Positions 3,902 to 46,850 of a stretch of DNA of 54,307 nucleotides are shown in pieces. Position numbers and translations under genes: made by a program. Source of the stretch: a virus (Duplodnaviria > Caudoviricetes); the IMG/VR virus record IMGVR_UViG_3300045961_000035, positions 1 through 54,307 of that record; one strand, given 5' to 3'. The notes under the pieces were generated by a model. The model saw only the letters and a program-made list of their open reading frames with translations. It did no database searches and had not been told where the DNA came from. How positions within the stretch are numbered: the first letter of the stretch is position 1; the number at the start of each line of letters is the position of its first letter.

Positions 3902-3932
3902 AAAAAAAGAGAGGAGGTCATGCGACCTCCCC
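3902..3932 (-). terminator. intrinsic terminator after ardC
   Basis: GGGGAGGTC-GCAT-GACCTCCTC followed by TCTTTTTTT on the minus strand, overlapping the stop codon. Confidence 0.75.
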
Positions 3933-4841
3933 TACTATCATGTCAACCGCCTTACTGCTCTGCGTGAGGGCACTCACGATGGCCTTGCTCGGCGTCTCCT
4001 TAATCTTCTTACACCACCCCTGAATGTAGGCGAGGGAATTGTCTCCGCCGTCCTTTGGATTCAGTCCGGCGATACCGGATATCATCATTGAGCCGCTCTC
4101 CGCGACCAACTCCTCCATCGCGTACTGCTCACTGCCGAACACATCAAACTCAACCACGCCCTTGCGCTTGAGACGGCTATCGTGACCGGTGCTATGCACC
4201 AACTCATGGAACAAGGTCTTGTAGTAAGAGTCAGAGTCAACGAACTGCTCGACCTTGGGCATCTGAACGTAGTCCGACGCCGGTGAATAGTAGGCACTAT
4301 TGCCGCCGTGCTTGATGGCCGGCTTGCCGTCCCACGCCGCAATGATGCGCTCGGCCTCCTCAACCGGATTGAACTCTGCCGGCTCCACGACAACGGCTCC
4401 GCCACGCGGCGCAATGTCCGTGCATTGGGCTATATTAAAGACCTTGTACATCTTCAACGTGAAGTACTTCTTGATATCCTTGGGATTCTCGCCGGCACTA
4501 ATTGCGGCGGCCTCGCTCGGGTAGGTCTTCTTCGTGTCGGCGTTCCAATATCCGATGTACCAAAAGTAGATGTCGGTGGCCTTTTCGCCCTTGTTGACGC
4601 GGCCCTTCAATTCAGTCACCTGCTTGAACGTGAGCCACTCGTTGTAGTCGTAGCCGAACTCACGCATGGCCGCCGAAAGGAGCCACACGTTCATGCCGTT
4701 GTAGGCGCGGCCGCTGACGCGGTTGACCGGCCGCCAATCGGAGCCGTTGGTGGACTTCCATGGCTTGAACCACTGCAGGCCCTCGCGCTCAACTCCGGCG
4801 AGGATGGTCTCTTTTACTTGTTCGAAGATGTCTTGCTTCAT
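3918..4841 (-). CDS. ardC: ArdC-family antirestriction protein (ssDNA-binding domain plus zincin-like MPTase)
   Basis: WFKPW, YNGMN..L, WLTFKQ, VNKGEK, VFNIAQ, AYYSP..D, HELVHSTGH..RL.R and YAMEELVAE motifs. Confidence 0.9.
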   Translation of the reverse strand: MKQDIFEQVKETILAGVEREGLQWFKPWKSTNGSDWRPVNRVSGRAYNGMNVWLLSAAMREFGYDYNEWLTFKQVTELKGRVNKGEKATDIYFWYIGYWNADTKKTYPSEAAAISAGENPKDIKKYFTLKMYKVFNIAQCTDIAPRGGAVVVEPAEFNPVEEAERIIAAWDGKPAIKHGGNSAYYSPASDYVQMPKVEQFVDSDSYYKTLFHELVHSTGHDSRLKRKGVVEFDVFGSEQYAMEELVAESGSMMISGIAGLNPKDGGDNSLAYIQGWCKKIKETPSKAIVSALTQSSKAVDMIVGEVA

Positions 4842-4857
4842 GGGGGATTTAATAGTT

Positions 4858-4908
4858 GGTTACGACGCCTCGCGGCGTTTCGGGTACTGAACCCATCATC
4901 AGGCAACC
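4858..4908 (-). ncRNA. type I hammerhead ribozyme
   Basis: Minus strand GGTTGC-CTGATGA-T-GGGT(TCAGT)ACCC-GAAA-CGCC(GCGA)GGCG-TC-GTAACC: full core, three stems, GUC cleavage triplet (cut between 4864 and 4863). Confidence 0.88.
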
Positions 4909-5546
4909 TATTTGCGTGCTTTGAACCGCAGTTTGAGACCGGTGATGTTCTCCTCGGTGCCGTCCTCACGAACCAAGACCGGAGTCCACTCATCTTCCTT
5001 CACGAAGCCAATCTCCTTGAACTCAAAGCCGTCCTCGGCGAGGCCGTTGTAGACCATGAGCGGGGTCAGGCGTCCATATGTATTGACCACGTTCTCATTG
5101 TGGTCAAACTCAAAGTACTCGGGCTTGGTCTCGAACTTGTATCCGGCGTTCTTGAGGACGTCCTCCACCACCGGACGCTGACTTGGCGTGGCGGCCTTGA
5201 GCATTTTCTCGGCCATTTCGAGACTGACCACGGCGTGGTCGGCGAACGGCTTAATCATGTCGGCAATCTTACGCTTCCAATCGCTGCAAGCCACGTCGTA
5301 GATGCGCTTAAGTTCAGCCGCCGGAACGATGTATTCAGAGCCGCCGAAGAGCGGCTTGAGGTCAGAGTCAGATTTGCCGATGTACCATAAGTTCTCGAGG
5401 TCATCATCCGACCAACCACCGAACTCGGGGTCATCGAATTGTACTTTGTAGTCTCCGTCTCGGTCTACGTTTACAATAGTTCCGGTAAAATCTTTGCCGT
5501 TGAAAGTGTAGAGGACGCGGTCGTTGAGTTTGAATGAAGTGTTCAT
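4908..5546 (-). CDS. hypothetical protein with N-terminal KOW/SH3-like beta domain; flanked by ribozymes
   Basis: 212 aa; FKLNDRV..GTIVNVD..YKVQFD; first gene of the early operon. Confidence 0.8.
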   Translation of the reverse strand: MNTSFKLNDRVLYTFNGKDFTGTIVNVDRDGDYKVQFDDPEFGGWSDDDLENLWYIGKSDSDLKPLFGGSEYIVPAAELKRIYDVACSDWKRKIADMIKPFADHAVVSLEMAEKMLKAATPSQRPVVEDVLKNAGYKFETKPEYFEFDHNENVVNTYGRLTPLMVYNGLAEDGFEFKEIGFVKEDEWTPVLVREDGTEENITGLKLRFKARK

Positions 5547-5571
5547 GAGTAAAATTAAATTAGGGGTTTTA

Positions 5572-5638
5572 TTTCCGCTCTGCGCTCACCGGACTATCCG
5601 GTGCCTACCCTTGCGAAGTAGGAATGGCGCATTAGAAA
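5572..5638 (-). ncRNA. twister ribozyme (P1 type with P5)
   Basis: Minus strand TTTC-TAA-TGC-G-CC-ATT-CCTAC(TTCGCAAGG)GTAGG-CACCGG(ATAGT)CCGGTG-AGC-GCA-GA-GCG-GAAA: P1, P2, P4, P5 and both pseudoknots (CGC/GCG, CC/GG) can form; cut U/A at 5634/5633. Confidence 0.82.
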
Positions 5639-5660
5639 GGAAGCGCAATACTGCGCCTCC
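5639..5660 (-). terminator. strong hairpin with weak U tail directly 5' of the twister
   Basis: GGAGGCGCA-GTAT-TGCGCTTCC followed by TTTCT. Confidence 0.45.
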
Positions 5661-6132
5661 CTCCCCAATTTTGTTTTTGTCGTTGGTCTACTTTGGTCGG
5701 GCGTTTGATATCGTTGGCATCGGTCTCGGTTTCGGGCTTCGGGCATTCCGTGGTCGGTCTGCTCTCGCCGGTTGTCGGCCTACATGAGGACTCGCGTCCT
5801 CACTCCCTCGTCTGCTTATTTTTTCTGCGCCTCTTCGGTTTTGACTGCATCCCCGCCGTACTATTCCGCAATTCCTCGCATCTTGGCCTACCTTTCGCTT
5901 CCCCTTGCGCCGTGGCGTCATTGTCTTGGCATTGTGTTGGACTCACCTACACTGCCTCCGTTTGGGGTTGGTACTTCTCTTGGCCTACTTGCGCTCACCT
6001 TGTGGCGTCGTGGCGTCGGGTTATGTGAAAGAACGTTGCAGGGATGTGGGGCGCAACCTAATCCGCCTCGTTGGGCGGCCTCCGGTCGGTTGGGCGAAGT
6101 CACATATGCAGAAGAACGTTGTCCCGTTGGAA
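5661..6132 (-). ncRNA. long non-coding early leader with periodic GTAGRCCRA repeats and boxA-like motifs
   Basis: No plausible ORF; U-poor; motif copies at 5683, 5775, 5883 and 5980; GNRA-capped hairpin TGAGGAC-GCGA-GTCCTCA. Confidence 0.5.
6022..6120 (-). promoter_or_regulatory. two boxA-like antitermination motifs
   Basis: AACGTTCTTCTGCATA (6105-6120) and AACGTTCTTTCACATA (6022-6037) resemble the rrn/nut boxA GYTCTTTnACA. Confidence 0.55.
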
Positions 6133-6137
6133 CGATG

Positions 6138-6168
6138 CAAACATGGGCAGAGGAAAAAATGAATCAAC
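6138..6168 (-). promoter_or_regulatory. early leftward promoter (GTTG-N19-CATGTTTG)
   Basis: Near-consensus Bacteroidota -33/-7 boxes immediately upstream of the first boxA-like motif. Confidence 0.55.
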
Positions 6169-6259
6169 TATTGCATATGAACTTTTTTTGATTCTGTAGC
6201 ACTGACGCGGGTTTCCGAGCGAAACTTTTTGATATGTGTGTTACAACATGTATGTATGA

Positions 6260-6525
6260 ATGGGTTAGTTTGCTGATTGTCAGACGTTTACGTTAACTCT
6301 TTAAGAGTCAACGAATTAGTAATCCATATTGATTCTAAATAAGTAAGTGTGCTGATAATCAAGCAATTGCAATGTGCTGATAATCAATGGATTGTCAGAT
6401 TTTGGTGGGTACACGTCGTGTACCTATCTATTTGGACAGAATCTAAATAGTGTAACTAACTGATATTCAGCATGTTCCATTGGATGAGATTGTTGTTGGG
6501 TCTTTTGTAACTGATTGAAAACGAG
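6260..6525. promoter_or_regulatory. cluster of IHF-like sites plus a Fur-box-like palindrome
   Basis: AATCAAGCAATTG and AATCAATGGATTG match WATCAANNNNTTR, with several near matches; palindrome CTATTTGGA-N5-TCTAAATAG at 6428-6450. Confidence 0.5.
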
Positions 6526-6869
6526 ATGTTTATGTTGGCGGTCGGTGGATGCATCCGCGTAGAAATTAGAGAAAACTGACGGGCGGGCGGGGCTTAACCG
6601 CCCTCTTCGGGCGTCTCTTTTGTAGTAAAAACGCGGGGCGGACGGGCGGAACGGGCGCGGTGACGGCGGCCGGACGGGGCGCGTGGCGCGACAGGTGCGC
6701 TGCCTGTACGACGATGTTGGAACATGCATGTTGCAACACGGAAACGGCAAAAAATCCGGACGGGGCTCGGCAAATCAGACCCCCCCTATCGAAAAAATAT
6801 CGGTTTCCGGAACGGGCGGTGTCGCGTAGGATGGCAGGGAACCCAAACCCTCTAAAAATCTGATGTCCG

Positions 6870-7413: not shown

Positions 7414-7725
7414 GTGTCGATTCTTATATAGTTAGTGTCGATTTAATGTCGATTTAGTGTCGATTTCTATTCTATTATATTATTGATTTTCAATTAGTTA
7501 TATATAAAATGTCGAAAATGTCGATTTTAAAGTCGATTTTCTCTGAGAAAAAATATTTTACAACCCTATATATATAGAGAGAGAATAGGAAACCCAAAAA
7601 AACCGACATTTTCGACACTTCACAGCTCAAAGAGCTGAGAACCAGCCGACTAAGTCGACACAAAACCGACACAGGTTAGTGTCGATTTCTTTAAGTTGCT
7701 GATTATCAGCATACATTTTCGACAT
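7414..7725. repeat. iteron-like (T)GTCGR array, putative replication origin or packaging signal
   Basis: About 14 copies; seven forward (7414-7536), mostly inverted CGACA copies after 7600, flanking an AT-rich core with the CTATATATATAG palindrome. Confidence 0.7.
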
Positions 7726-7791: not shown

Positions 7792-8061
7792 ATGCCAGAC
7801 CCAAAGAAGAAGATTGTAGGTATGCAGCCCGGGCACGAGTACGCTTCAAGCCGGAAGTACATGCCCAAGAGCGATAGCTTTGAAGAGCGCGTTCAGTTCG
7901 AAGACGCCAGCAACAAGGGTAAGCTTCGCAACATTGACGTAGAGACAGGTCGTGTTTACGGCAGAAGAACGCTCATGGTGCCGCCATTACAAAGTAAGGG
8001 GCTTACTATGCCAAAGATGACGCCAAAGGGTAGAGACATTCCGCTCCCAAAGACAAAGTAG
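7792..8061 (+). CDS. basic hypothetical protein
   Basis: 89 aa; preceded by TAACTTTG (7760-7767) and followed by a terminator. Confidence 0.7.
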   Translation: MPDPKKKIVGMQPGHEYASSRKYMPKSDSFEERVQFEDASNKGKLRNIDVETGRVYGRRTLMVPPLQSKGLTMPKMTPKGRDIPLPKTK

Positions 8062-8084: not shown

Positions 8085-8126
8085 AGCCGGATGATTTGGT
8101 CACCCGGCTTTTTTATTTTACCTTTG
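8085..8126 (+). terminator. terminator followed directly by a TACCTTTG promoter
   Basis: AGCCGG...CCGGCT-TTTTT then the -7 box at 8119-8126. Confidence 0.7.
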
Positions 8127-8144
8127 GCATCAAATACGAATCGA

Positions 8145-9737
8145 ATGGACTACACACCTAAGAGTTTGACCTTTGACCAGGACGGTCGCGAGCGTTTGCT
8201 CAGTGGATTGGATAAGATGGCCAAGGCCGTCGGCAGTACGTTGGGGCCTAGGGGCAAGACGGTGCTGATTGAGAGCCAACACCACACGCACGGCATCACT
8301 GTAACCAAGGACGGGGTGACTGTCGCCAAGAGTATTGACCTGTTGGACCCGGTTGAGAACCTAGCGGTGCGCATGATGCGCGAGGCGGCGGAGCGCACGG
8401 CTACGAGTGCTGGTGACGGCACGACCACGGCGGTGGTGCTGACCCACGCGCTGGTGCGTACGGGCATGCAGCTCATCACCGACGAGTACAACGCCACTGA
8501 GGTGCTGCGTCACATGCACAGCCTGAGTGAGGAGGCCATTAAGAAGCTCGAGAAGATGTCGCGGAAGGTGACGCCGTCGAGGTTGAAGGACGTGGCGACT
8601 ATCTCCGCCAACAACGACCGCACGCTCGGTGAGCTCATCGCTAAGGTGTACGGACAGGTGGGGAAGAACGGGCTGGTAACGGTCGAGAAGGGCACCGGCG
8701 ACGAGACGACCTACGAGGTGACAAACGGGATACGCATCGACAGGGGGTACAGCACCAAGCTGTTCGTGAACGACCAGAAGAAGGACGAGTGTGTGCTCGA
8801 GGACGTGTACATCCTGATGACGGACCACGAGATAAGTAACATCTTACAGATTGAGACGGTGCTCAAGCCCATCGTGGCTGGTGGGCATAAGCTGCTCATC
8901 ATCGCTCCGTGCAGTAACCAGGTCACAACGACGCTGGCCGCCAACGTCATTAAGAACGGGCTGAAGCTGTGCGCCATCGCGCCACCTCAGTTCGGCTACA
9001 AGCAGCACGAGCTGATGGGTGACATCGCCGCTAGCGTCGGCGGTCGGTTCATAAGCGAGGGGATGGGCGACGAGCTCAGCCTGGTGACCATGGCCGACCT
9101 GGGTCATGCCGCTAAGGTCATCGTCGGTAAGGACTCGACGGTCATCGTCCGTAAGGAAGGGACGAGCGCAGAGGTGAACGCCAGGGTGAATGAGCTGTGG
9201 AGCGCCCACGACCAGGCCAGTAAGAAGGGCGACCGTGACTTCATCAAGCAGCGCATCGCCAGCCTGACTGGTGGGGTTGGTATTATCTACGTTGGGGGCA
9301 GCTCGGACGTGGAGCAGAAGGAGACCTACGACCGGGTAGAGGACGCGGTGCAGGCCGTGCGCTCGGCGCTCGAGGAGGGTATACTGCCGGGTGGTGGCGT
9401 AGCGCTGCACAGCGTGTCGCACTGGATGGACGACAACATCACAGCCACGTCTGAGGAGATGAGGCTGGCGCACCGCATCATGTCGCTGGCGATGATTGAG
9501 CCTGCCGCGCGCATCGTCGAGAACGCCGGCCTTGAGTTCATCGAGATAGCTGGCGGCATGGATGGTGACAATGGGCTCAACGTGAAGACTATGACGTACG
9601 GTGACATGTACGACATGGGCGTCATCGACCCACTGAAGGTAACTAAGAACGCGCTGCGTAACGCGGTGAGCGTGGCCACGACGATACTGAGCACCAACGC
9701 CATCATCACGCTGGCTAGAAGCTACGAGGACAGTTGA
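8145..9737 (+). CDS. groL: phage-encoded chaperonin GroEL
   Basis: TLGPRG, TKDGVTVAK, AGDGTTTA, DRVEDA, GILPGGG and GVIDPLKV motifs; likely start MDYTPK. Confidence 0.97.
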   Translation: MDYTPKSLTFDQDGRERLLSGLDKMAKAVGSTLGPRGKTVLIESQHHTHGITVTKDGVTVAKSIDLLDPVENLAVRMMREAAERTATSAGDGTTTAVVLTHALVRTGMQLITDEYNATEVLRHMHSLSEEAIKKLEKMSRKVTPSRLKDVATISANNDRTLGELIAKVYGQVGKNGLVTVEKGTGDETTYEVTNGIRIDRGYSTKLFVNDQKKDECVLEDVYILMTDHEISNILQIETVLKPIVAGGHKLLIIAPCSNQVTTTLAANVIKNGLKLCAIAPPQFGYKQHELMGDIAASVGGRFISEGMGDELSLVTMADLGHAAKVIVGKDSTVIVRKEGTSAEVNARVNELWSAHDQASKKGDRDFIKQRIASLTGGVGIIYVGGSSDVEQKETYDRVEDAVQAVRSALEEGILPGGGVALHSVSHWMDDNITATSEEMRLAHRIMSLAMIEPAARIVENAGLEFIEIAGGMDGDNGLNVKTMTYGDMYDMGVIDPLKVTKNALRNAVSVATTILSTNAIITLARSYEDS

Positions 9738-39745: not shown

Positions 39746-42700
39746 ATGAACGAAGAGCTTAAGAAGCTATACGATGCAATCGTATCTAAAGGTTTCTATA
39801 CCAAGTCGTATGACGATTTTGTAAATCAGTACCAAGACCCCGCATACCGCGACAAGGTATTTGATGTTGTAACTCGTGAAGGTCTATACACTAGGGGGCG
39901 CGAAGAGTTCGATACAAAGTATGCAGCGACTGGTTTAAAAAAAAAAGAACCTTCAGTTTCTACTTCTCAAGAGGCCGCTATGGAGCAGCCTATGGAGACT
40001 GGTTCTTCGGAGTTGCCAAAGTCCGCAGGCGTTAAGGTAACTACTCCTACGGGACAACAGGCCACTGTTCAGTGGGGGCCTACAGAATTTAAGGCTTCAC
40101 AAGATGCTCCCATGTACGACATGGCGAGTCTGTCTGATATTGTTGGAAATGTTGACGTTACGATTGATGAGGCTACCAAGCAAAAGATAAGCAATGTTGT
40201 AGGCATCACTGGCGCCGTATTTAACAAGATTGTAAACCCGCAGTCCAACGCTGCCCAGGCATTGGCTGATGCAAAAAAGTTTGCCGACAACACTCAGACC
40301 GCATACAATGTTGGAGCCCTGAGTGCGCAGATTAGCAACAACATGGCTGATGAAGTTCCTGACTATGAGCGAGTTGCAAAACTCAAGCAGCAACTGAAAA
40401 ACGAGCAGCCCAAACTTTTGTCATCGCAGCTTGGTGCTGAAGCAGGTGACTTCTTTGATATGCTTGCGGCCAACCCGGTTACATTCCTTACTGAGGTATT
40501 GACTACGTCTGCAACTCAGATGACCGGTGGAGCTGGCGCAATGACACCAGAGGACCTATTGTACGCCACAGCGCTCGGCCTTCCTACCGCTGGAGCTGGA
40601 GCAACCGCCTACATGGCAGGGAAAAACTCACTTAATGCGGAGATGTCTTCTCGCATTCTTGACGCCCTCGAGGAGCGTGGTGTTGATGTAACAAATGCTG
40701 AGCAGCTTCGAACAGCTATGACCAATCCAGAATTAATGATGGATGTCAAAAGCGAAATTCAGGCTCCCGCTACAATTGTTGCTGCACTCGACGCCGTAAG
40801 TGGCGGTCTTGCTGGACGAGTTGGTAAGCCACTAGTTGAACTTGCCATTCAGGCTGGGTCTGGTGCCGTAGGTGAGGCTGGTGCTCAGATTGCCGCAGAT
40901 GGACGTATTACTTCGCCGTCAGCTATCCTTACTGAGATGGTGGCAGAGATTCCAGGTGGCCTTATTGAGACGGCGTTTGGTGCTAAGACGAAAGACATTG
41001 CTCGCAAGACAAAGGTCAATCAGGAAATCAATGAGCTTGAGACTGAGCTTTCTGCGACTGATGACCCAGAGGTTAGAGGGGTACTTGAGACTGCGCTCAA
41101 TGCCAAGAGAAACGAGAAGAATAAGATATTCACTGACTACGCAGACTTTGTGAACTCACTGCCCGAAGAAGAGGTGGCGAGGCTCAATGCGTTAAATGAG
41201 GAGATAGTAAAAGTTAGCAACGCAATCAATACAGTGACCAGCGATATAGCTGGAAAGGCACTGAGAGACCGGAGACAGTCTCTGCTTGATGAGGTTGCAA
41301 AGATTGAAGAAACCGCAACACCAACACAAGATGCCGTTCAAGAGCAAGCAACAGATGAAGGCGTGCTACGCCCAGAACAACCCGAAGTGGGACTGCAAGA
41401 AATGGTCGAAGGAGACCAAGAACCTGAAGTCGTTGCCGAAGCGGGTGAAGAAGTAGTTCCTCAGGCTGTAGAAGAACAAGAGCTGTCTGACCTTAGAGCA
41501 ATTATAGGTGAGCCAGATGGTGGTGAACCAAGATTCAGGCTTTCCGATAGTGAGACTATTGTGAACGAGGCTGATGTCGAGGGGATTACCGATGTGATGA
41601 ACAAGATGCCAGCTGTTCAGCTGGAATTTCAGGAGCCAACTGGCGTTGAGACATCTATCGTATCTCCAATCGAGCAGTCGAAATCGACTGTAAAGGACAT
41701 CACGGAAGAGCAAGCCAGTGCACTTACTGGTAGAATCGAAGATTACAATGGCCTACCTATGGTCACTGGAATGTCTGACATATTGGCATCTGGCGTAGTA
41801 AAGGACTCAATGGGTAATGACATGCAGGTAGACGGTGGTCTTCTGTTCAATGTCCTAGGCTCTAATAAGGACCTCGCTTGGGCTGGCGTAAACGAAGGTG
41901 GAGCTCAGGCTCAGTATGACGCAGCGGTGCGTCTATATCAGTCTAATAAGCCACTGTTCGATAAGGCTTGGACTGACGGAAAGCTGCCTAATGGTCATGT
42001 TCCGATGGCCATTATGCGAATGTCAAATGGTGCAATCAATTCCAACGAGGCTGTGTTCCGCTGGATACTTCCAACGGTAGAATCACTTCCGGAAAAGAAC
42101 AGAGTTAACGCAATGACTCCATTGATTGAGGCTATTGATGCGAAGACAAAAGTTTCCGACGATAAGATTAGAGCGGCAGCCAATGCGCTTAAGAGCGATA
42201 TCGAAGCCAATAACATTAAATCAGTTGATGAGTTACTTAAGTATGTAATTGAGCAGGCTAAGCAGCGTGCTGCTGGCAATGAGGATACATTTACTCTACC
42301 TGAGCGCTCTCTTCTTTATGAGGTTATGTTCTCTGCTGAGGGCGTAAAGAAACCAAATTCAAAATACATCAAGACGTTATTTGATGGCGTCGATGCCACT
42401 AACGCAAAGAACTTCACCTCTGATGCTATCTATGATGCAATTGGCGAGGAGTCAATGAAGAGCTTAAAGCAGGGAAGTGTTGTTGCCATCATGGGTATTG
42501 ACGTACTAAATGGCGGCATTCAGAAAGCGCAGCACAACAACTATGGATTCGGCCCAAAGGGGCAGGCAATTGCTATTTTGCAAAACCCCACGCATGGCAT
42601 TGATGTATTCCCGGAGTGGAAGGCCAAGGCTTCGCGAGTGTTCAAGGAAAAAGTAAAGAAGACCGGAGAGGTTGTGGCTCCGGACATGGAGTCGATACCA

Positions 42701-45700
42701 ACACAAGTTGGTGGTGCCTTCTTTGCTGATGGCGCATTTATTGGCGCAAGACCAATGGTGAATGCCATCGGTGACATAGAGATGCTGATGGGCAAGCTTC
42801 GGTTTGCGTTCCCATCCGTTCAAGCTACGGCTACACAGGAGGAGTTTGATGCCATCATGCAGGACCCAGAGGTAAGAACCAGAGAGGTCAACGGCATGAA
42901 GATTCTTGGCTTGACCAAGGACGGCAATATATACATCAACCCCAGCGAGGCTTCGCTGGCTACGCCAATCCACGAGTTTGGTCACATCTGGATTGACTTC
43001 CTGCGCTCTAAGGAATCAGGCAAGAAGGGCACTGAGCTGCTTAATAAGGGGCTTGAGCTTGTCGAAGGAACGATGGAGCTTGATACGGCCAAGGCGAAGT
43101 ATGGAGACACGGAGCTAGCTAGAGAAGAAGCGCTTGTTGAATTGATGGCCACCAAGGGTGAGACCATCATCAATGCATCTAAGCGTTCCAAGTTTAAGTC
43201 TTGGCTTAATGGCGTGTTCAAGTACATCAAAGAAAGATTCACTACATCTAAGGACCTAAAGGTAGACGGCATCAAAGACCTTACGCTTGACGAGTTCATT
43301 GGCGTAGCTCTAGCTGACCTGTTCTCTGGCCAGCCAATCAACAACAAGTTCAGCCCGAGAAAGGCTGCCGAGTCTATGCGTGCTAGATACAGCGCGCAAG
43401 AGGACAACATCTACGACATAGTTGGAAAGGCAAGGGCTGAAGGTTTCAGGGATGTAACTATCGAAGCGTTTCTAAAGGAGCGTGGATACACGTCTGAAGA
43501 AATCAAGGGAGCCATGGAGATTCCGCTCGATGTGCTCGGCAACGTGCTTCCTGATGCGTTTAAAAACCTTGAGGGCGGGGCGGTAGTTGGTCAGAATTTA
43601 TTTAACAACATCAAAGAAAAGTTAAATAAGCTTGCTGCCAAGAAGAATAAAATCACCAAGAAGCCTGTATACAATAAGTTACAGCTTCGTGAAGAGACAA
43701 AGAATCTTCTGACTGCTACCGAAGAGTTCAAGGCTCAGACGGATGAGGTGAAGGCTAAGCTGATGCTTGACCTCGACAAGGCAATTGGCATCAAGTCAAG
43801 TAACGCAGCAATGCGTGAAGAGTTCAAGTCGCTGAGAGCTATGCTCTTGGACCGCAAGAAGACCAGAGATAATCTCGAGGCCATCAAACGTAAGGTGCGT
43901 GGCTTCATTCGCAAGTCATTGCCGCAGGGTGAGTACACCAAGGCTGATGTACTTAAGTTAATCCAGGCCGTTACCGACGCCAACTACGACAACCTGCCCG
44001 CAATAATGCAGCGCGTTGAGGGATACGTTAACGAGTACAACGTAGCCAAGGTAGAGCGAGACATCAAGAAACTTCTTGAGACCAAGACCACTAAGGTTGA
44101 GAGCGGTAGAAGAATGGGCACTACGACTATCCAGGTTCAGGATGCCATTGCTTCTATTAATGAGGAGCTTGTGAGTCCAGACATGGCGCCAGATAAGATA
44201 GCCGAAACCATGGAGCGCCAGCTTAAGGAGTTCGATGAATTGACTTCTGAATTCTCTCTCGACGAAGAGGATATAATGCGTGCTCAGGTTCTACAGATAG
44301 CCATGCTGTACAACGAGGCATCGCTGATGGAGAACAACGACCCGAACAAACTGGATACGTTGACGCAGGCTAAGACGCAGCTGGCTCAGCTCGTACTTGA
44401 GGGACGCTCAGCGTTTAAGGATGCGCTGTCTCGTCAGCATGAGATGTACAGACAGAACGTGAAGGACCTCATCGAATCTATCACGGGCAAGGTAGTTGAT
44501 GACGACATCACTACCAACGATGGGGCTGAGGAGTTTGTTAGAACGTCAGAGATTGAGCGAGCAAACGAGGAGGCCACTAAGTCAAGAGTCGCAAAGGCGT
44601 GGTCTTCATTTGTTGGCCAGCCGTTCACTAACTACTTTGATAAGACTGGTTCACTTCACACGCTGTTGTCGCGCATAACGGAGAACCTTACTGACCAGTT
44701 TGGCGGAAGAGTTCACGATATGGTATACGACAGACTCAAGCAATCAAGCATTGAGTTCGAGGGCAGGATGCAGAAGATGAACGCCATGATTGACAAGGCA
44801 GCCATCGACATCTTTGGAGAGAAGTACGACAGCGTTGTAAAGAACAACAAGGTAAAAGCTCCAGTCGACATCTTTAAGGATGAGGCAGCTGCCAAGAAGA
44901 TTATGGATGAGATGAAGACGGCAAGCTCAAAGCGTAAGACTGAGCTGAATGCTGAGCTTAACAAACTCCGTGTGTTCGAGCCGATGAGTCAAAACCAAAT
45001 CTACTACCTGTACAACCAATACAAAGACCCGGCTAACAGAACTGGCTTCGAGTCTAAGTTTGGAGACAACTACGTAGAGCTTATGGACAGGCTATTCAAC
45101 GAGGCTCTTGACCCAAGGGTAAAAGAATGGGCTGACTGGCAGGTAAACGTTTTGTACCCATCACTTTACCAGGACTACAACCCAGTATATCAGAATATAT
45201 TCCGCACCAATATGCCGTGGAATCCGAACTACGCTGGACGGATGTATCGTGAGTTTGAGGCTGACGATACCATGGCAATCACGCTGATGAATGATAAGGG
45301 CGAGTTCTCAAACATCCAGACGCCATCGTCTACGAAGCTTCGCAAGAAGAATAAGAATGCCATCAAGCTGATGGATGGTGATGGTGTGCTATCATCATAC
45401 CTTGGCGACATGGAATACTTCCGTGCATACGCGGAGAGTATCCGTGACATTGATAAGATGTTCAAGAACAAGGCTGTTCGCGAGTCAATCAAGAGGACTA
45501 CCGGGGAAGATGTGCTCAAGCTTATCGACAACAACATTAAGCTTGTTGGAACGAGAGGGATGAGTGCCGGAGAGGGCATGAAGCAAACTATGCTTGATAA
45601 TATATCAGCCAGATTCTCTAAGGCTGTGCTCATGGCTAACCCATCTCAGTTTGTCAAGCAGGCAACGTCTTTGTTTGCGTTCGCTAACCGCATTGGCTTT

Positions 45701-46777
45701 GAGAACTGGGCTAAGTACACAGCCAAGGCAACGCCAGACATGAAGAATCTTTGGAATGAGTTCATCGAGAATGCGCCACGCATTCAGAAGCGCTACAACC
45801 CGAAGGAGCTGACGGCCATCATTGGAACGTACAAGCAGGGACGAACTACGGACATAATGCCAAAGGATAAAGAAGGTAATCCAATCCTTAGAACGGCTGG
45901 AGAAGTATACGACAAGATGCTTGATGCCATGATGTGGCCTGTAATTCAGGGTGATAAGTTCTCGGCTATGGCTGGAGCAATGGGCAACTACCTGTACTAC
46001 AAGGAGTCGTTCTTTGCTTCCAATCCCAAGGCCACGGAACAAGAGGCCATCAAGTATGCGGCCGATAAGGTCAGCACCGAGATTGAGCAGACGCTTGGCT
46101 CATCCGATATTATCGACAAGGACTACTATCAAAACTCTGGCAACGCATTGTACCGTGCGTTCTCTGTACTTCAGAATGCGCCAAAGGCTATGATTCGTCA
46201 GATTGTTCCAGCGTACAGCGGCTTCTTTAAGAAGCTGGCAAAGATGGATAAAACGGCAGGACAGGGAACGCTCAAGCAAAACATTGAGACCATCTTCCTA
46301 TACCAATTCTTGGTACCCATGCTGTTCCAGTACGCGGTACTCGGATTTCCAGGTCTGCTTAGAGAGTGGAGAGAAGATGAGGACGATTACGAAATGGGTA
46401 TGGCCGCTCTGCTCGGACCGTTCACTGCGCTGTTCTTTGTTGGAGATATGCTTACCGCCGCACGCGACCTATTGCTTGACAAGCCGTGGGCTACAGATGC
46501 ACGCACTGCTCCGGGATGGGATATTCTATCTGATGCAACTAAGTCTGCTCAGAAGATAATGAATGCCAAGAGTGATGACGATGTATACGAGGCTATTGCA
46601 GACATGGGTTACGCAGCGTCAGCTGCCGCAGGACTTGGCCTCAAGAACATAAGCAGAATGGCTCAGAACATGGCTGAGGTAATCGACAGCGGTGCTAACG
46701 ATGCAGGAGAAGCGGTTCTAAGGTTGCTAAACTATTCAGACTACACCATTGAGGGACCAGACAGGAAAAAGAAGTAG
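39746..46777 (+). CDS. giant virion (ejection/polyvalent-type) protein with zincin-like HExxH motif
   Basis: 2343 aa; IYINP..LATPIHEFGHIW..EEALVE; hydrophobic Gly/Ala segments near both ends. Confidence 0.8.
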   Translation: MNEELKKLYDAIVSKGFYTKSYDDFVNQYQDPAYRDKVFDVVTREGLYTRGREEFDTKYAATGLKKKEPSVSTSQEAAMEQPMETGSSELPKSAGVKVTTPTGQQATVQWGPTEFKASQDAPMYDMASLSDIVGNVDVTIDEATKQKISNVVGITGAVFNKIVNPQSNAAQALADAKKFADNTQTAYNVGALSAQISNNMADEVPDYERVAKLKQQLKNEQPKLLSSQLGAEAGDFFDMLAANPVTFLTEVLTTSATQMTGGAGAMTPEDLLYATALGLPTAGAGATAYMAGKNSLNAEMSSRILDALEERGVDVTNAEQLRTAMTNPELMMDVKSEIQAPATIVAALDAVSGGLAGRVGKPLVELAIQAGSGAVGEAGAQIAADGRITSPSAILTEMVAEIPGGLIETAFGAKTKDIARKTKVNQEINELETELSATDDPEVRGVLETALNAKRNEKNKIFTDYADFVNSLPEEEVARLNALNEEIVKVSNAINTVTSDIAGKALRDRRQSLLDEVAKIEETATPTQDAVQEQATDEGVLRPEQPEVGLQEMVEGDQEPEVVAEAGEEVVPQAVEEQELSDLRAIIGEPDGGEPRFRLSDSETIVNEADVEGITDVMNKMPAVQLEFQEPTGVETSIVSPIEQSKSTVKDITEEQASALTGRIEDYNGLPMVTGMSDILASGVVKDSMGNDMQVDGGLLFNVLGSNKDLAWAGVNEGGAQAQYDAAVRLYQSNKPLFDKAWTDGKLPNGHVPMAIMRMSNGAINSNEAVFRWILPTVESLPEKNRVNAMTPLIEAIDAKTKVSDDKIRAAANALKSDIEANNIKSVDELLKYVIEQAKQRAAGNEDTFTLPERSLLYEVMFSAEGVKKPNSKYIKTLFDGVDATNAKNFTSDAIYDAIGEESMKSLKQGSVVAIMGIDVLNGGIQKAQHNNYGFGPKGQAIAILQNPTHGIDVFPEWKAKASRVFKEKVKKTGEVVAPDMESIPTQVGGAFFADGAFIGARPMVNAIGDIEMLMGKLRFAFPSVQATATQEEFDAIMQDPEVRTREVNGMKILGLTKDGNIYINPSEASLATPIHEFGHIWIDFLRSKESGKKGTELLNKGLELVEGTMELDTAKAKYGDTELAREEALVELMATKGETIINASKRSKFKSWLNGVFKYIKERFTTSKDLKVDGIKDLTLDEFIGVALADLFSGQPINNKFSPRKAAESMRARYSAQEDNIYDIVGKARAEGFRDVTIEAFLKERGYTSEEIKGAMEIPLDVLGNVLPDAFKNLEGGAVVGQNLFNNIKEKLNKLAAKKNKITKKPVYNKLQLREETKNLLTATEEFKAQTDEVKAKLMLDLDKAIGIKSSNAAMREEFKSLRAMLLDRKKTRDNLEAIKRKVRGFIRKSLPQGEYTKADVLKLIQAVTDANYDNLPAIMQRVEGYVNEYNVAKVERDIKKLLETKTTKVESGRRMGTTTIQVQDAIASINEELVSPDMAPDKIAETMERQLKEFDELTSEFSLDEEDIMRAQVLQIAMLYNEASLMENNDPNKLDTLTQAKTQLAQLVLEGRSAFKDALSRQHEMYRQNVKDLIESITGKVVDDDITTNDGAEEFVRTSEIERANEEATKSRVAKAWSSFVGQPFTNYFDKTGSLHTLLSRITENLTDQFGGRVHDMVYDRLKQSSIEFEGRMQKMNAMIDKAAIDIFGEKYDSVVKNNKVKAPVDIFKDEAAAKKIMDEMKTASSKRKTELNAELNKLRVFEPMSQNQIYYLYNQYKDPANRTGFESKFGDNYVELMDRLFNEALDPRVKEWADWQVNVLYPSLYQDYNPVYQNIFRTNMPWNPNYAGRMYREFEADDTMAITLMNDKGEFSNIQTPSSTKLRKKNKNAIKLMDGDGVLSSYLGDMEYFRAYAESIRDIDKMFKNKAVRESIKRTTGEDVLKLIDNNIKLVGTRGMSAGEGMKQTMLDNISARFSKAVLMANPSQFVKQATSLFAFANRIGFENWAKYTAKATPDMKNLWNEFIENAPRIQKRYNPKELTAIIGTYKQGRTTDIMPKDKEGNPILRTAGEVYDKMLDAMMWPVIQGDKFSAMAGAMGNYLYYKESFFASNPKATEQEAIKYAADKVSTEIEQTLGSSDIIDKDYYQNSGNALYRAFSVLQNAPKAMIRQIVPAYSGFFKKLAKMDKTAGQGTLKQNIETIFLYQFLVPMLFQYAVLGFPGLLREWREDEDDYEMGMAALLGPFTALFFVGDMLTAARDLLLDKPWATDARTAPGWDILSDATKSAQKIMNAKSDDDVYEAIADMGYAASAAAGLGLKNISRMAQNMAEVIDSGANDAGEAVLRLLNYSDYTIEGPDRKKK
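41331..41456 (+). CDS. nested +1-frame small basic protein (41 aa)
   Basis: MPFKSKQQMKACYAQNNPKWDCKKWSKETKNLKSLPKRVKK lies inside an acidic linker of the giant gene. Confidence 0.6.
   Translation: MPFKSKQQMKACYAQNNPKWDCKKWSKETKNLKSLPKRVKK

Positions 46778-46850
<73 letters not shown>

Follow-up and report, generated by a model that had tools for sequence, protein, structure and literature searches.

The locus and its leader

The stretch of DNA analysed here (hereafter the window) is an IMG/VR virus record at its full length of 54,307 bp, and it encodes portal, tail-fibre and virion proteins, the content expected of a tailed phage. Minus-strand genes run leftward from the ATG at 5546 and plus-strand genes run rightward from approximately position 7800. 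On the coding strand of the leftward operon, 25 nt upstream of ATG 5546, lies a 67-base element (5638..5572, minus strand) which has all the consensus features of a type-P1 twister in canonical order, and which is preceded by a leader. The features of this neighbourhood are as follows.

3918-4841, minus strand: anti-restriction-like protein gene
4908-5546, minus strand: first gene downstream of the element, 212 aa, starting at ATG 5546 (from the ORF list)
5661-6236, minus strand: upstream leader, with a provisional 5' limit (from composition, strain indels and RNA-library contigs)
8091-9737, plus strand: GroEL-like chaperonin gene

The first gene has no PHROG match and no Pfam match, and relatives of its protein were not found in viral contigs. 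Searches for DNA homologues of the region were negative in GenBank phages, in viral contigs (exact 31-mer) and in the 81 first GroEL relatives (blastn).

Strain variation was followed by placing contigs, rather than reads, of the DNA runs X2, X6 and X10 and of the RNA-library run X23 on 4900-6400; such contigs cannot show RNA ends. The strains are 3-4% diverged in the flanks and keep the element. Over 4900-6028, X2 has 40 letter differences and 8 gaps relative to the window, the single listed strain difference inside 5572-5638 falls at 5595, in the middle of the P5 loop (X2 and X23), and the spacer at 5548-5556 is an indel hot spot, with several small indels in X2, X6 and X10.

The leader is U-poor and rich in A, C and G over 5650-6030 (minus strand; approximately 8-11% U, and down to 2% in 50-nt windows). 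Because the strain contigs carry a 1-nt deletion at 5864 (X2, X6) and an 83-nt skip at 6029-6111 (X2, X6, X23), its sequence suggests, by the indirect route of these indels, that it is non-coding. The 83-nt segment is flanked by 17-nt direct repeats (6022-6038 and 6105-6121), and is either a duplication in the window or a deletion in X2, X6 and X23. The leader shows no unusual degree of structure (z -0.64), nor any enrichment of GGA (14 seen, 13.3 expected). A promoter search found no Bacteroidota-type TAnnTTTG motif, and no sigma-70-like minus-strand site between the element and 7159. RNA-library (X23) contigs cover 5590-5740, 5761-5911 and 6007-6236; the first of these, 151 nt long, bridges the predicted cleavage site, which means that uncleaved RNA, or DNA in that library, exists. 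On 4900-5589 X23 has no contig, an absence that carries no information on how abundant leader and mRNA are relative to each other.

Several repeats lie further upstream. An AT-rich array of GTGTCGATTT / AAATCGACA repeats in both orientations occupies 7414-7725, upstream of the GroEL gene, and the same motif is found in the related phage L086 (3100-3290); the related phages with a canonical twister also have the AAATCGACA iterons of the window upstream of GroEL. These arrays look like the iterons of an origin, or like operator sites. Copies of the near-palindrome TGCTGATAATCAGCA at 6265-6394 and 7691-7714 stand at both edges of the central non-coding region and may be operator sites of the divergent transcription units, while G+C-rich direct repeats (GACGGGCGGGCGGGGC and variants; 6578-6683, plus strand) lie within a central region of otherwise moderate GC. 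Elsewhere in the window, a tRNA gene (46778-46850, minus strand; Rfam 72.5 bits; anticodon loop CUCAUAA, giving the anticodon CAU) sits where the genes switch from the plus to the minus strand. An ORF of 2343 aa (39746-46777, plus strand) is without a PHROG family match.

Architecture of the element

We searched the window with a descriptor of our own, which requires P1 of at least 3 pairs, N-AA, P2 of 3-5 pairs, NC, P4 of 4-6 pairs, an L4 composed of 1-3 nt, XXX, AAG and N', then P2', GA and YYY complementary to XXX, with loops of at most 45 nt. Its sole match on both strands is 5638..5572. Dinucleotide-preserving shuffles of the whole window gave at least one match in 19 of 1000 cases, so this result is suggestive and not enough by itself when many windows are scanned. 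Written 5' to 3' on the minus strand, the element reads UUUC U AA UGCG CC AUU CCUAC UUCGCAAGG GUAGG CACCGGAUAGUCCGGUG AG CGCA GA GCG GAAA. Its parts, with the helices that surround it, are listed below in transcript order; R1 is a covariance model and L340 a homologue in another viral contig, both of which are described in the next section.

5663-5670, minus strand: 5' strand of a predicted outer helix (AAUUGGGG) enclosing P0 and the twister (minimum free energy (MFE) fold of 5670..5547)
5639-5660, minus strand: P0 hairpin, 9 bp (GGAGGCGCA GUAU UGCGCUUCC), abutting the 5' end of the ribozyme (folds)
5635-5638, minus strand: P1 5' strand UUUC, partner of GAAA 5575-5572 (descriptor parse)
5632-5634, minus strand: U-A-A, with predicted cleavage between U5634 and A5633 and with A5633 at the general acid position (sequence and consensus positions)
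5628-5631, minus strand: P2 5' strand UGCG (descriptor, R1)
5626-5627, minus strand: PK1/T2 5' strand CC (complementary to G5610 and G5609)
5623-5625, minus strand: L2 5' linker AUU, with no P3 (descriptor; L340 has AUC)
5618-5622, minus strand: P4 5' strand CCUAC (descriptor, fold)
5609-5617, minus strand: L4, 9 nt, UU CGC AA GG, comprising the PK2/T1 5' strand CGC, the invariant AAG and the PK1/T2 3' strand GG (sequence, descriptor, L340 comparison)
5604-5608, minus strand: P4 3' strand GUAGG (descriptor, fold)
5587-5603, minus strand: P5 hairpin CACCGGA UAG UCCGGUG, 7 bp, loop UAG (folds)
5585-5586, minus strand: AG linker between P5 and P2' (identical in L340)
5581-5584, minus strand: P2 3' strand CGCA (descriptor, R1)
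5576-5580, minus strand: G5580 (general base position), A5579 and the PK2/T1 3' strand GCG 5578-5576 (sequence, descriptor, R1)
5572-5575, minus strand: P1 3' strand GAAA (descriptor)
5558-5565, minus strand: 3' strand of the predicted outer helix (CCCUAAUU), 12-19 nt upstream of the start codon (MFE fold)

The positions of the cleavage site and the general acid were taken from the consensus in the accessible part of PMC11662667 and from the Rfam alignment. A preliminary description of this DNA, made from the letters alone, had proposed P1 UUUC/GAAA, a UAA loop, P4 CCUAC/GUAGG and the P5 hairpin, and each of these is found on the minus strand. The P2 that it proposed is there as well, and the three pairs given for it (UGC/GCA) are better read as four (UGCG/CGCA), a reading by which CC stands directly after P2, as in the consensus. 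P1, P2 and P4 thus have 4, 4 and 5 Watson-Crick pairs in the descriptor parse, and P2, P4 and P5 are also present in the MFE folds. The T1 pairing described as CGC/GCG could be located as CGC 5615-5613 with GCG 5578-5576, with the flanking A5612 and A5579 both there, and the conserved A5612, A5611 and G5610 in L4, together with the catalytic-position G5580 right after P2', are all intact. The L4 loop is indeed one nucleotide longer than usual, with 9 nt against 8 nt in all 27 aligned phage twisters and in the Rfam consensus, and L340 shares this length.

Two features complicate the picture. The base before P2' is G5585, with A5586 one position earlier, where at least 90% of the 27 aligned phage twisters have A; this A is frequent, and the accessible part of PMC11662667 does not state it as defining. 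Furthermore, C5627 has an alternative partner in the MFE folds, G5585, a pairing which extends P2 and competes with PK1.

P0 and the outer helix both lie outside 5572-5638, the extent originally described. The outer helix is predicted to have 8 bp (5670-5663 with 5565-5558), and the 124-nt region 5670..5547 folds better than its shuffles (z = -4.71; 0 of 200 shuffles as good).

Twister models, a homologue and related phages

The preliminary description had proposed a search with twister models. The twister reading held in every computational test that was run, among them the descriptor, R1 and the comparison with L340, except against Rfam's own models. The Rfam twister models gave nothing at gathering and nothing at E<=10 on 5400-5800, and RF03160 had no match at E<=10 in the whole record. 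The gathering threshold of RF03160 is 67.2 bits, and even the canonical twister of the related phage L071 falls below it, at 52 bits. The RF03160 consensus includes a P3 stem, which has a closing C-G pair, as well as a UAAA linker and a loop of 8 nt (UCCCAAGC), and it lacks P5. Rfam misses the element of the window because the latter has no P3, an inserted 17-nt P5, an extra L4 nucleotide and other pseudoknot letters; the letters of a pseudoknot cannot be scored as pairs by a covariance model.

For a model independent of this sequence, phage twisters were gathered by a 14-base P4/L4 motif, which gave 116 stretches and, from these, 28 unique type-P1 descriptor matches. One of these (L189; 114 nt, with long loops) was left out as probably spurious. 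The remaining 27 phage twisters make up alignment A1, from which R1 was built with the window sequence excluded. With filters off, the best match of R1 in the window is exactly 5572-5638 on the minus strand (18.1 bits, E ~0.006), the next scores 10.9 bits, and the maximum on a control of 92.9 kb of twister-free relatives is 12.2 bits. The R1 alignment scores the outer shell only (P1, UAA, P2, P2', GAGNG), with a local end that skips the inner 36 model positions, and the inner part of the reading therefore rests on the descriptor and on L340. Several phage twisters of A1 also have the P2 sequence UGCG/CGCA.

A further feature of the preliminary description was a compensatory change in T2, with CC/GG in place of GC/GC. 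This change is real: A1 has GC/GC in 27 of 27 sequences, 9 of which were not constrained to GC by the search pattern. When viral contigs were scanned with a pattern barring G at the variable PK1 position, N and N' were complementary in all 35 of the unique twister-like sequences recovered (33 A-U, 1 C-G and 1 U-G). The PK1 pair thus covaries in nature, and CC/GG is a legitimate, rare state; it falls inside the known consensus, in which McKinley et al. 2024 write this strand as 'NC' (PMC11662667, accessible part).

The sole C-G case is L340, at 6521-6583 (plus strand) of its viral contig, which reads CCGU U AA UGCA CC AUC UGACC UU-CCC-AA-GG GGUCA CCGC-ACGAA-GCGG AG UGCA G A GGG GCGG. It scores 19.4 bits with R1 and has no match in Rfam. 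The two elements were compared part by part through the descriptor parse, as MAFFT misaligned the 3' half. All 18 pairs of P1, P2, PK1, P4 and PK2 are standard in both. This single, partly pattern-selected homologue departs from the window on both sides of 9 pairs and on one side of 1 pair, and agrees with it in the other 8; in P4, 4 of the 5 pairs have changed on both sides. The unpaired core is identical (U, AA, AU[U/C], UU, AA, AG, GA), and the two share a P5 directly after P4, an abutting upstream hairpin (P0), the AG linker, a 9-nt L4 starting with UU, the CC/GG PK1 and a place ahead of a start codon (~20 nt in L340). L340 differs from the window in its phage context, as it sits between two co-oriented ORFs, and in the sequences of P1, P4, P5, one P2 pair and one PK2 pair. 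Part of the likeness was imposed by the search pattern, namely P2 except for its fourth pair, the CCC/GGG pseudoknot and the conserved AA, AAG and GAG; independent of the pattern are P1, the 5-bp P4, the fourth P2 pair, PK1 complementarity, the 3-nt L2, the UU start of L4, P5, the AG linker and P0. Strains of the window phage, being near-identical, add only a loop change to the covariation.

Searches for a third CC/GG member were negative in viral contigs, where none of 33 partial-pattern matches passed the descriptor, and in genome contigs, where the strict subtype pattern had 0 matches and none of the 16 matches to a looser pattern passed the descriptor. Across 360 loci (3.16 Mb), C stands at the variable PK1 position in one of 51 unique descriptor matches, which is L340. 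The same loci hold a sizeable group of viral twisters with A-U at this pair (L314-L360; 33 unique sequences), of which many come from a single sample's ~100 kb contigs and several belong to a giant-virus bin. Five loci (L166, L192, L230, L233 and L238) have two type-P1 twisters each with differing PK2 (CCC/GGG, CAC/GUG, UCC/GGA), which is natural PK2 covariation within one genome.

Phages related through GroEL (57-71% identity) supplied 80 loci, and the GroEL of L071 as a second query added 79 more, with L080 found again. In 1.42 Mb of these loci the strict descriptor matched canonical twisters only; a relaxed descriptor was uninformative (9 real matches, 20 in three simulated sets). Three distinct contigs (L071, which is the same as L086, together with L088 and L089) carry a canonical minimal twister, which scores 52.0 bits with RF03160 (E 1.3e-10) and 61.5-62.3 bits with R1. 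Its relative place is that of the element of the window: it lies on the strand opposite to GroEL and follows a non-coding leader, and the first leftward gene, which differs between carriers, starts ~30 nt further downstream. Unlike the element of the window, the canonical twister is 52-54 nt long, with GC/GC PK1, CUA/UAG PK2, an 8-nt L4 and no P5, and no DNA similarity to the window's element or leader was detectable. A twister is missing at this place in 157 of ~160 relative loci; L087, with a GroEL 99% identical, has a different leftward module and no twister. No other ribozyme family was found at this place at Rfam gathering in the loci of 28 relatives. Over the full records of 81 relatives, RF03160 gave only weak matches (13.1-13.8 bits), in three of them; these fall elsewhere, in sequence that looks coding, and were taken as chance.

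L086 and L088 have homologous twisters and leaders but differ in the gene right after the twister. In the population of the window phage, breaks or divergence of X6 contigs occur at 5547, 5554, 5558 and 5573, at the 3' edge of the ribozyme. Together, these breaks and the gene swap indicate that the ribozyme marks a mosaic junction. Two further observations were made in these phages. Approximately nine spaced, tandem short inverted repeats lie on the minus strand upstream of the leader in which the canonical twister lies (L086 2380-2620, AGTCTACC..GATGGACT; L088 2700-3000, AGTCCAC..GTGGACT). The spacers from ribozyme to start codon are A/U-rich and have no Shine-Dalgarno-like purine run (window 5547-5571; L086 1823-1853; L088 2161-2191), which would fit hosts initiating without one, e.g., Bacteroidota.

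Class, predicted function and known systems

On this sequence evidence, 5638..5572 is very probably a genuine type-P1 twister self-cleaving ribozyme of rare architecture, with self-cleavage predicted. The architecture, as read from the letters and folds, combines an upstream P0, no P3, a 3-nt L2, a 5-bp P4, a 9-nt L4, CC/GG with CGC/GCG pseudoknots, a P5 abutting P4 and an AG linker. The element agrees with the class in every structural respect tested and departs from it in the Rfam score and in one frequent nucleotide. Deviations reported as tolerated include the N in 'NC', an insertion at L4 position 1, a variable L2 and a P5 stem, and P0 has been described as an auxiliary twister stem (PMC11662667, accessible part).

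A different outcome of the same ancestry would be a degenerate or regulated relic, i.e., an RNA of twister descent with little or no cleavage that serves as a structured 5'-UTR element, stabilising the mRNA or masking the translation start region. Possible causes would be the lack of an A ahead of P2', the shortness of L2, the extension of P2 by G5585, or an inhibitory P0. In vitro, P0-bearing twisters cleaved much less (mean 0.40 vs 0.85; PMC11662667, accessible part), and the competing G5585/C5627 pairing of the MFE folds, the G before P2' where the consensus is at least 90% A, and the RNA-library contig across the cleavage site would all fit such a relic. We consider it distinctly unlikely, since the catalytic and pseudoknot positions are all intact and L340 keeps the same deviations with compensatory changes elsewhere, which argues for selection on the whole twister fold; moreover, the same source reports activity for ~94% of the natural candidates that it tested, and cleavage >0.80 for all of those with a P5. 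Very unlikely, in our view, is a chance look-alike, in which ordinary hairpins (P4 and P5 in a structured 5' UTR, or P0 with a U-rich tail as a leader terminator) are flanked by twister-like short motifs: the shuffle matches imply that chance matches would turn up if very many windows were scanned, Rfam gives no match and the partial-pattern matches elsewhere (33 of 33 in viral contigs, 16 of 16 in genomes) are all chance, but the independent R1 score of 18.1 bits stands against at most 12.2 bits for chance, L340 shares the architecture and shows compensatory changes in 9 pairs, the coding-strand site 25 nt before a start codon is where related phages have a bona fide twister, and the element is conserved across strains next to an indel hot spot.

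As a self-cleaving twister, the element would be transcribed within the 5' untranslated region of the leftward operon, fold co-transcriptionally and then be cut between U5634 and A5633. By the established twister mechanism (PMC11662667, accessible part), A5633 would act as general acid and G5580 as general base, and the cut would be expected to leave U5634 with a 2',3'-cyclic phosphate and A5633 with a 5'-OH. The upstream product would be a long, U-poor non-coding leader ending in the P0 hairpin and UUUCU with the 2',3'-cyclic phosphate, and the downstream product an mRNA with the 5'-OH, headed by the folded ribozyme body, which stops 25 nt short of ATG 5546. Cleavage may thereby insulate the operon mRNA from its leader and leave both fragments with ends that are defined and protected. 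From its position 25 nt before ATG 5546, the most likely function of the ribozyme would be to separate the long non-coding leader from the operon mRNA. As the predicted outer helix covers the bases 12-19 nt upstream of the start codon, a cleavage-dependent unmasking is also possible.

A more far-reaching proposal is that the window and L340 represent a distinct, unmodelled twister subtype (P0 and P5, CC/GG, 9-nt L4, AG linker) that serves as a portable junction module at the mosaic boundaries of phage operons. Cleavage would then release a ~0.4-0.6-kb U-poor leader as a stand-alone, P0-capped RNA and free the start-codon region from the outer helix (5670-5663/5565-5558), switching on translation of the first gene. 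We regard this proposal, taken as a whole, as unlikely.

Although thousands of twisters are known, what they do in bacteria and phages is described as undefined in the accessible part of PMC6765202, and our literature search found no paper on twisters in phage leaders. Against this background, the element is a concrete twister form which is invisible to the Rfam models and has a second member in L340, which implies that censuses may undercount P5-bearing, P3-less twisters. The setting is repeated in GroEL-encoding phages, where a ribozyme separates the first operon gene from a long non-coding leader, and it coincides with the point where downstream genes are exchanged between strains. It could serve as a testable model of natural ribozymes as insulators between mRNA and leader. 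As an added example of a known and well-studied class, it is an ordinary member and will be a modest surprise to the specialist; the supplementary lists of PMC11662667 may hold P5-bearing or CC/GG members.

Compared with the type-P1 twister (RF03160, with rice Osa-1-4 as the studied example), the element has the same order of P1, U-A-A, P2, 'NC', P4, L4 XXX-AAG-N, P2', G-A, YYY and P1', the two pseudoknots and a P2 of UGCG/CGCA as in several phage members. It differs by the absence of P3 and of a closing C-G pair, and in having a 3-nt L2, a 17-nt P5 before P2', an L4 of 9 nt where RF03160 has 8, CC/GG rather than GC/GC as PK1, CGC/GCG as PK2, and G rather than A before P2'. The type-P5 twister (RF02684) resembles it in the use of a P5 stem, the absence of P3 and an A after the PK1 strand (consensus GCAagac), but is circularly permuted, with its two ends in P5 and P1 closed, whereas in the window P1 is open and P5 closed. 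A parallel in function may be drawn with the ribozyme 5'-UTR insulators of synthetic biology, such as RiboJ, in which a self-cleaving ribozyme between a promoter-proximal leader and the ribosome-binding region gives the mRNA a defined 5'-OH end with a hairpin. Unlike the element described here, these insulators are engineered and hammerhead-based, and we infer that the natural element serves the same purpose.
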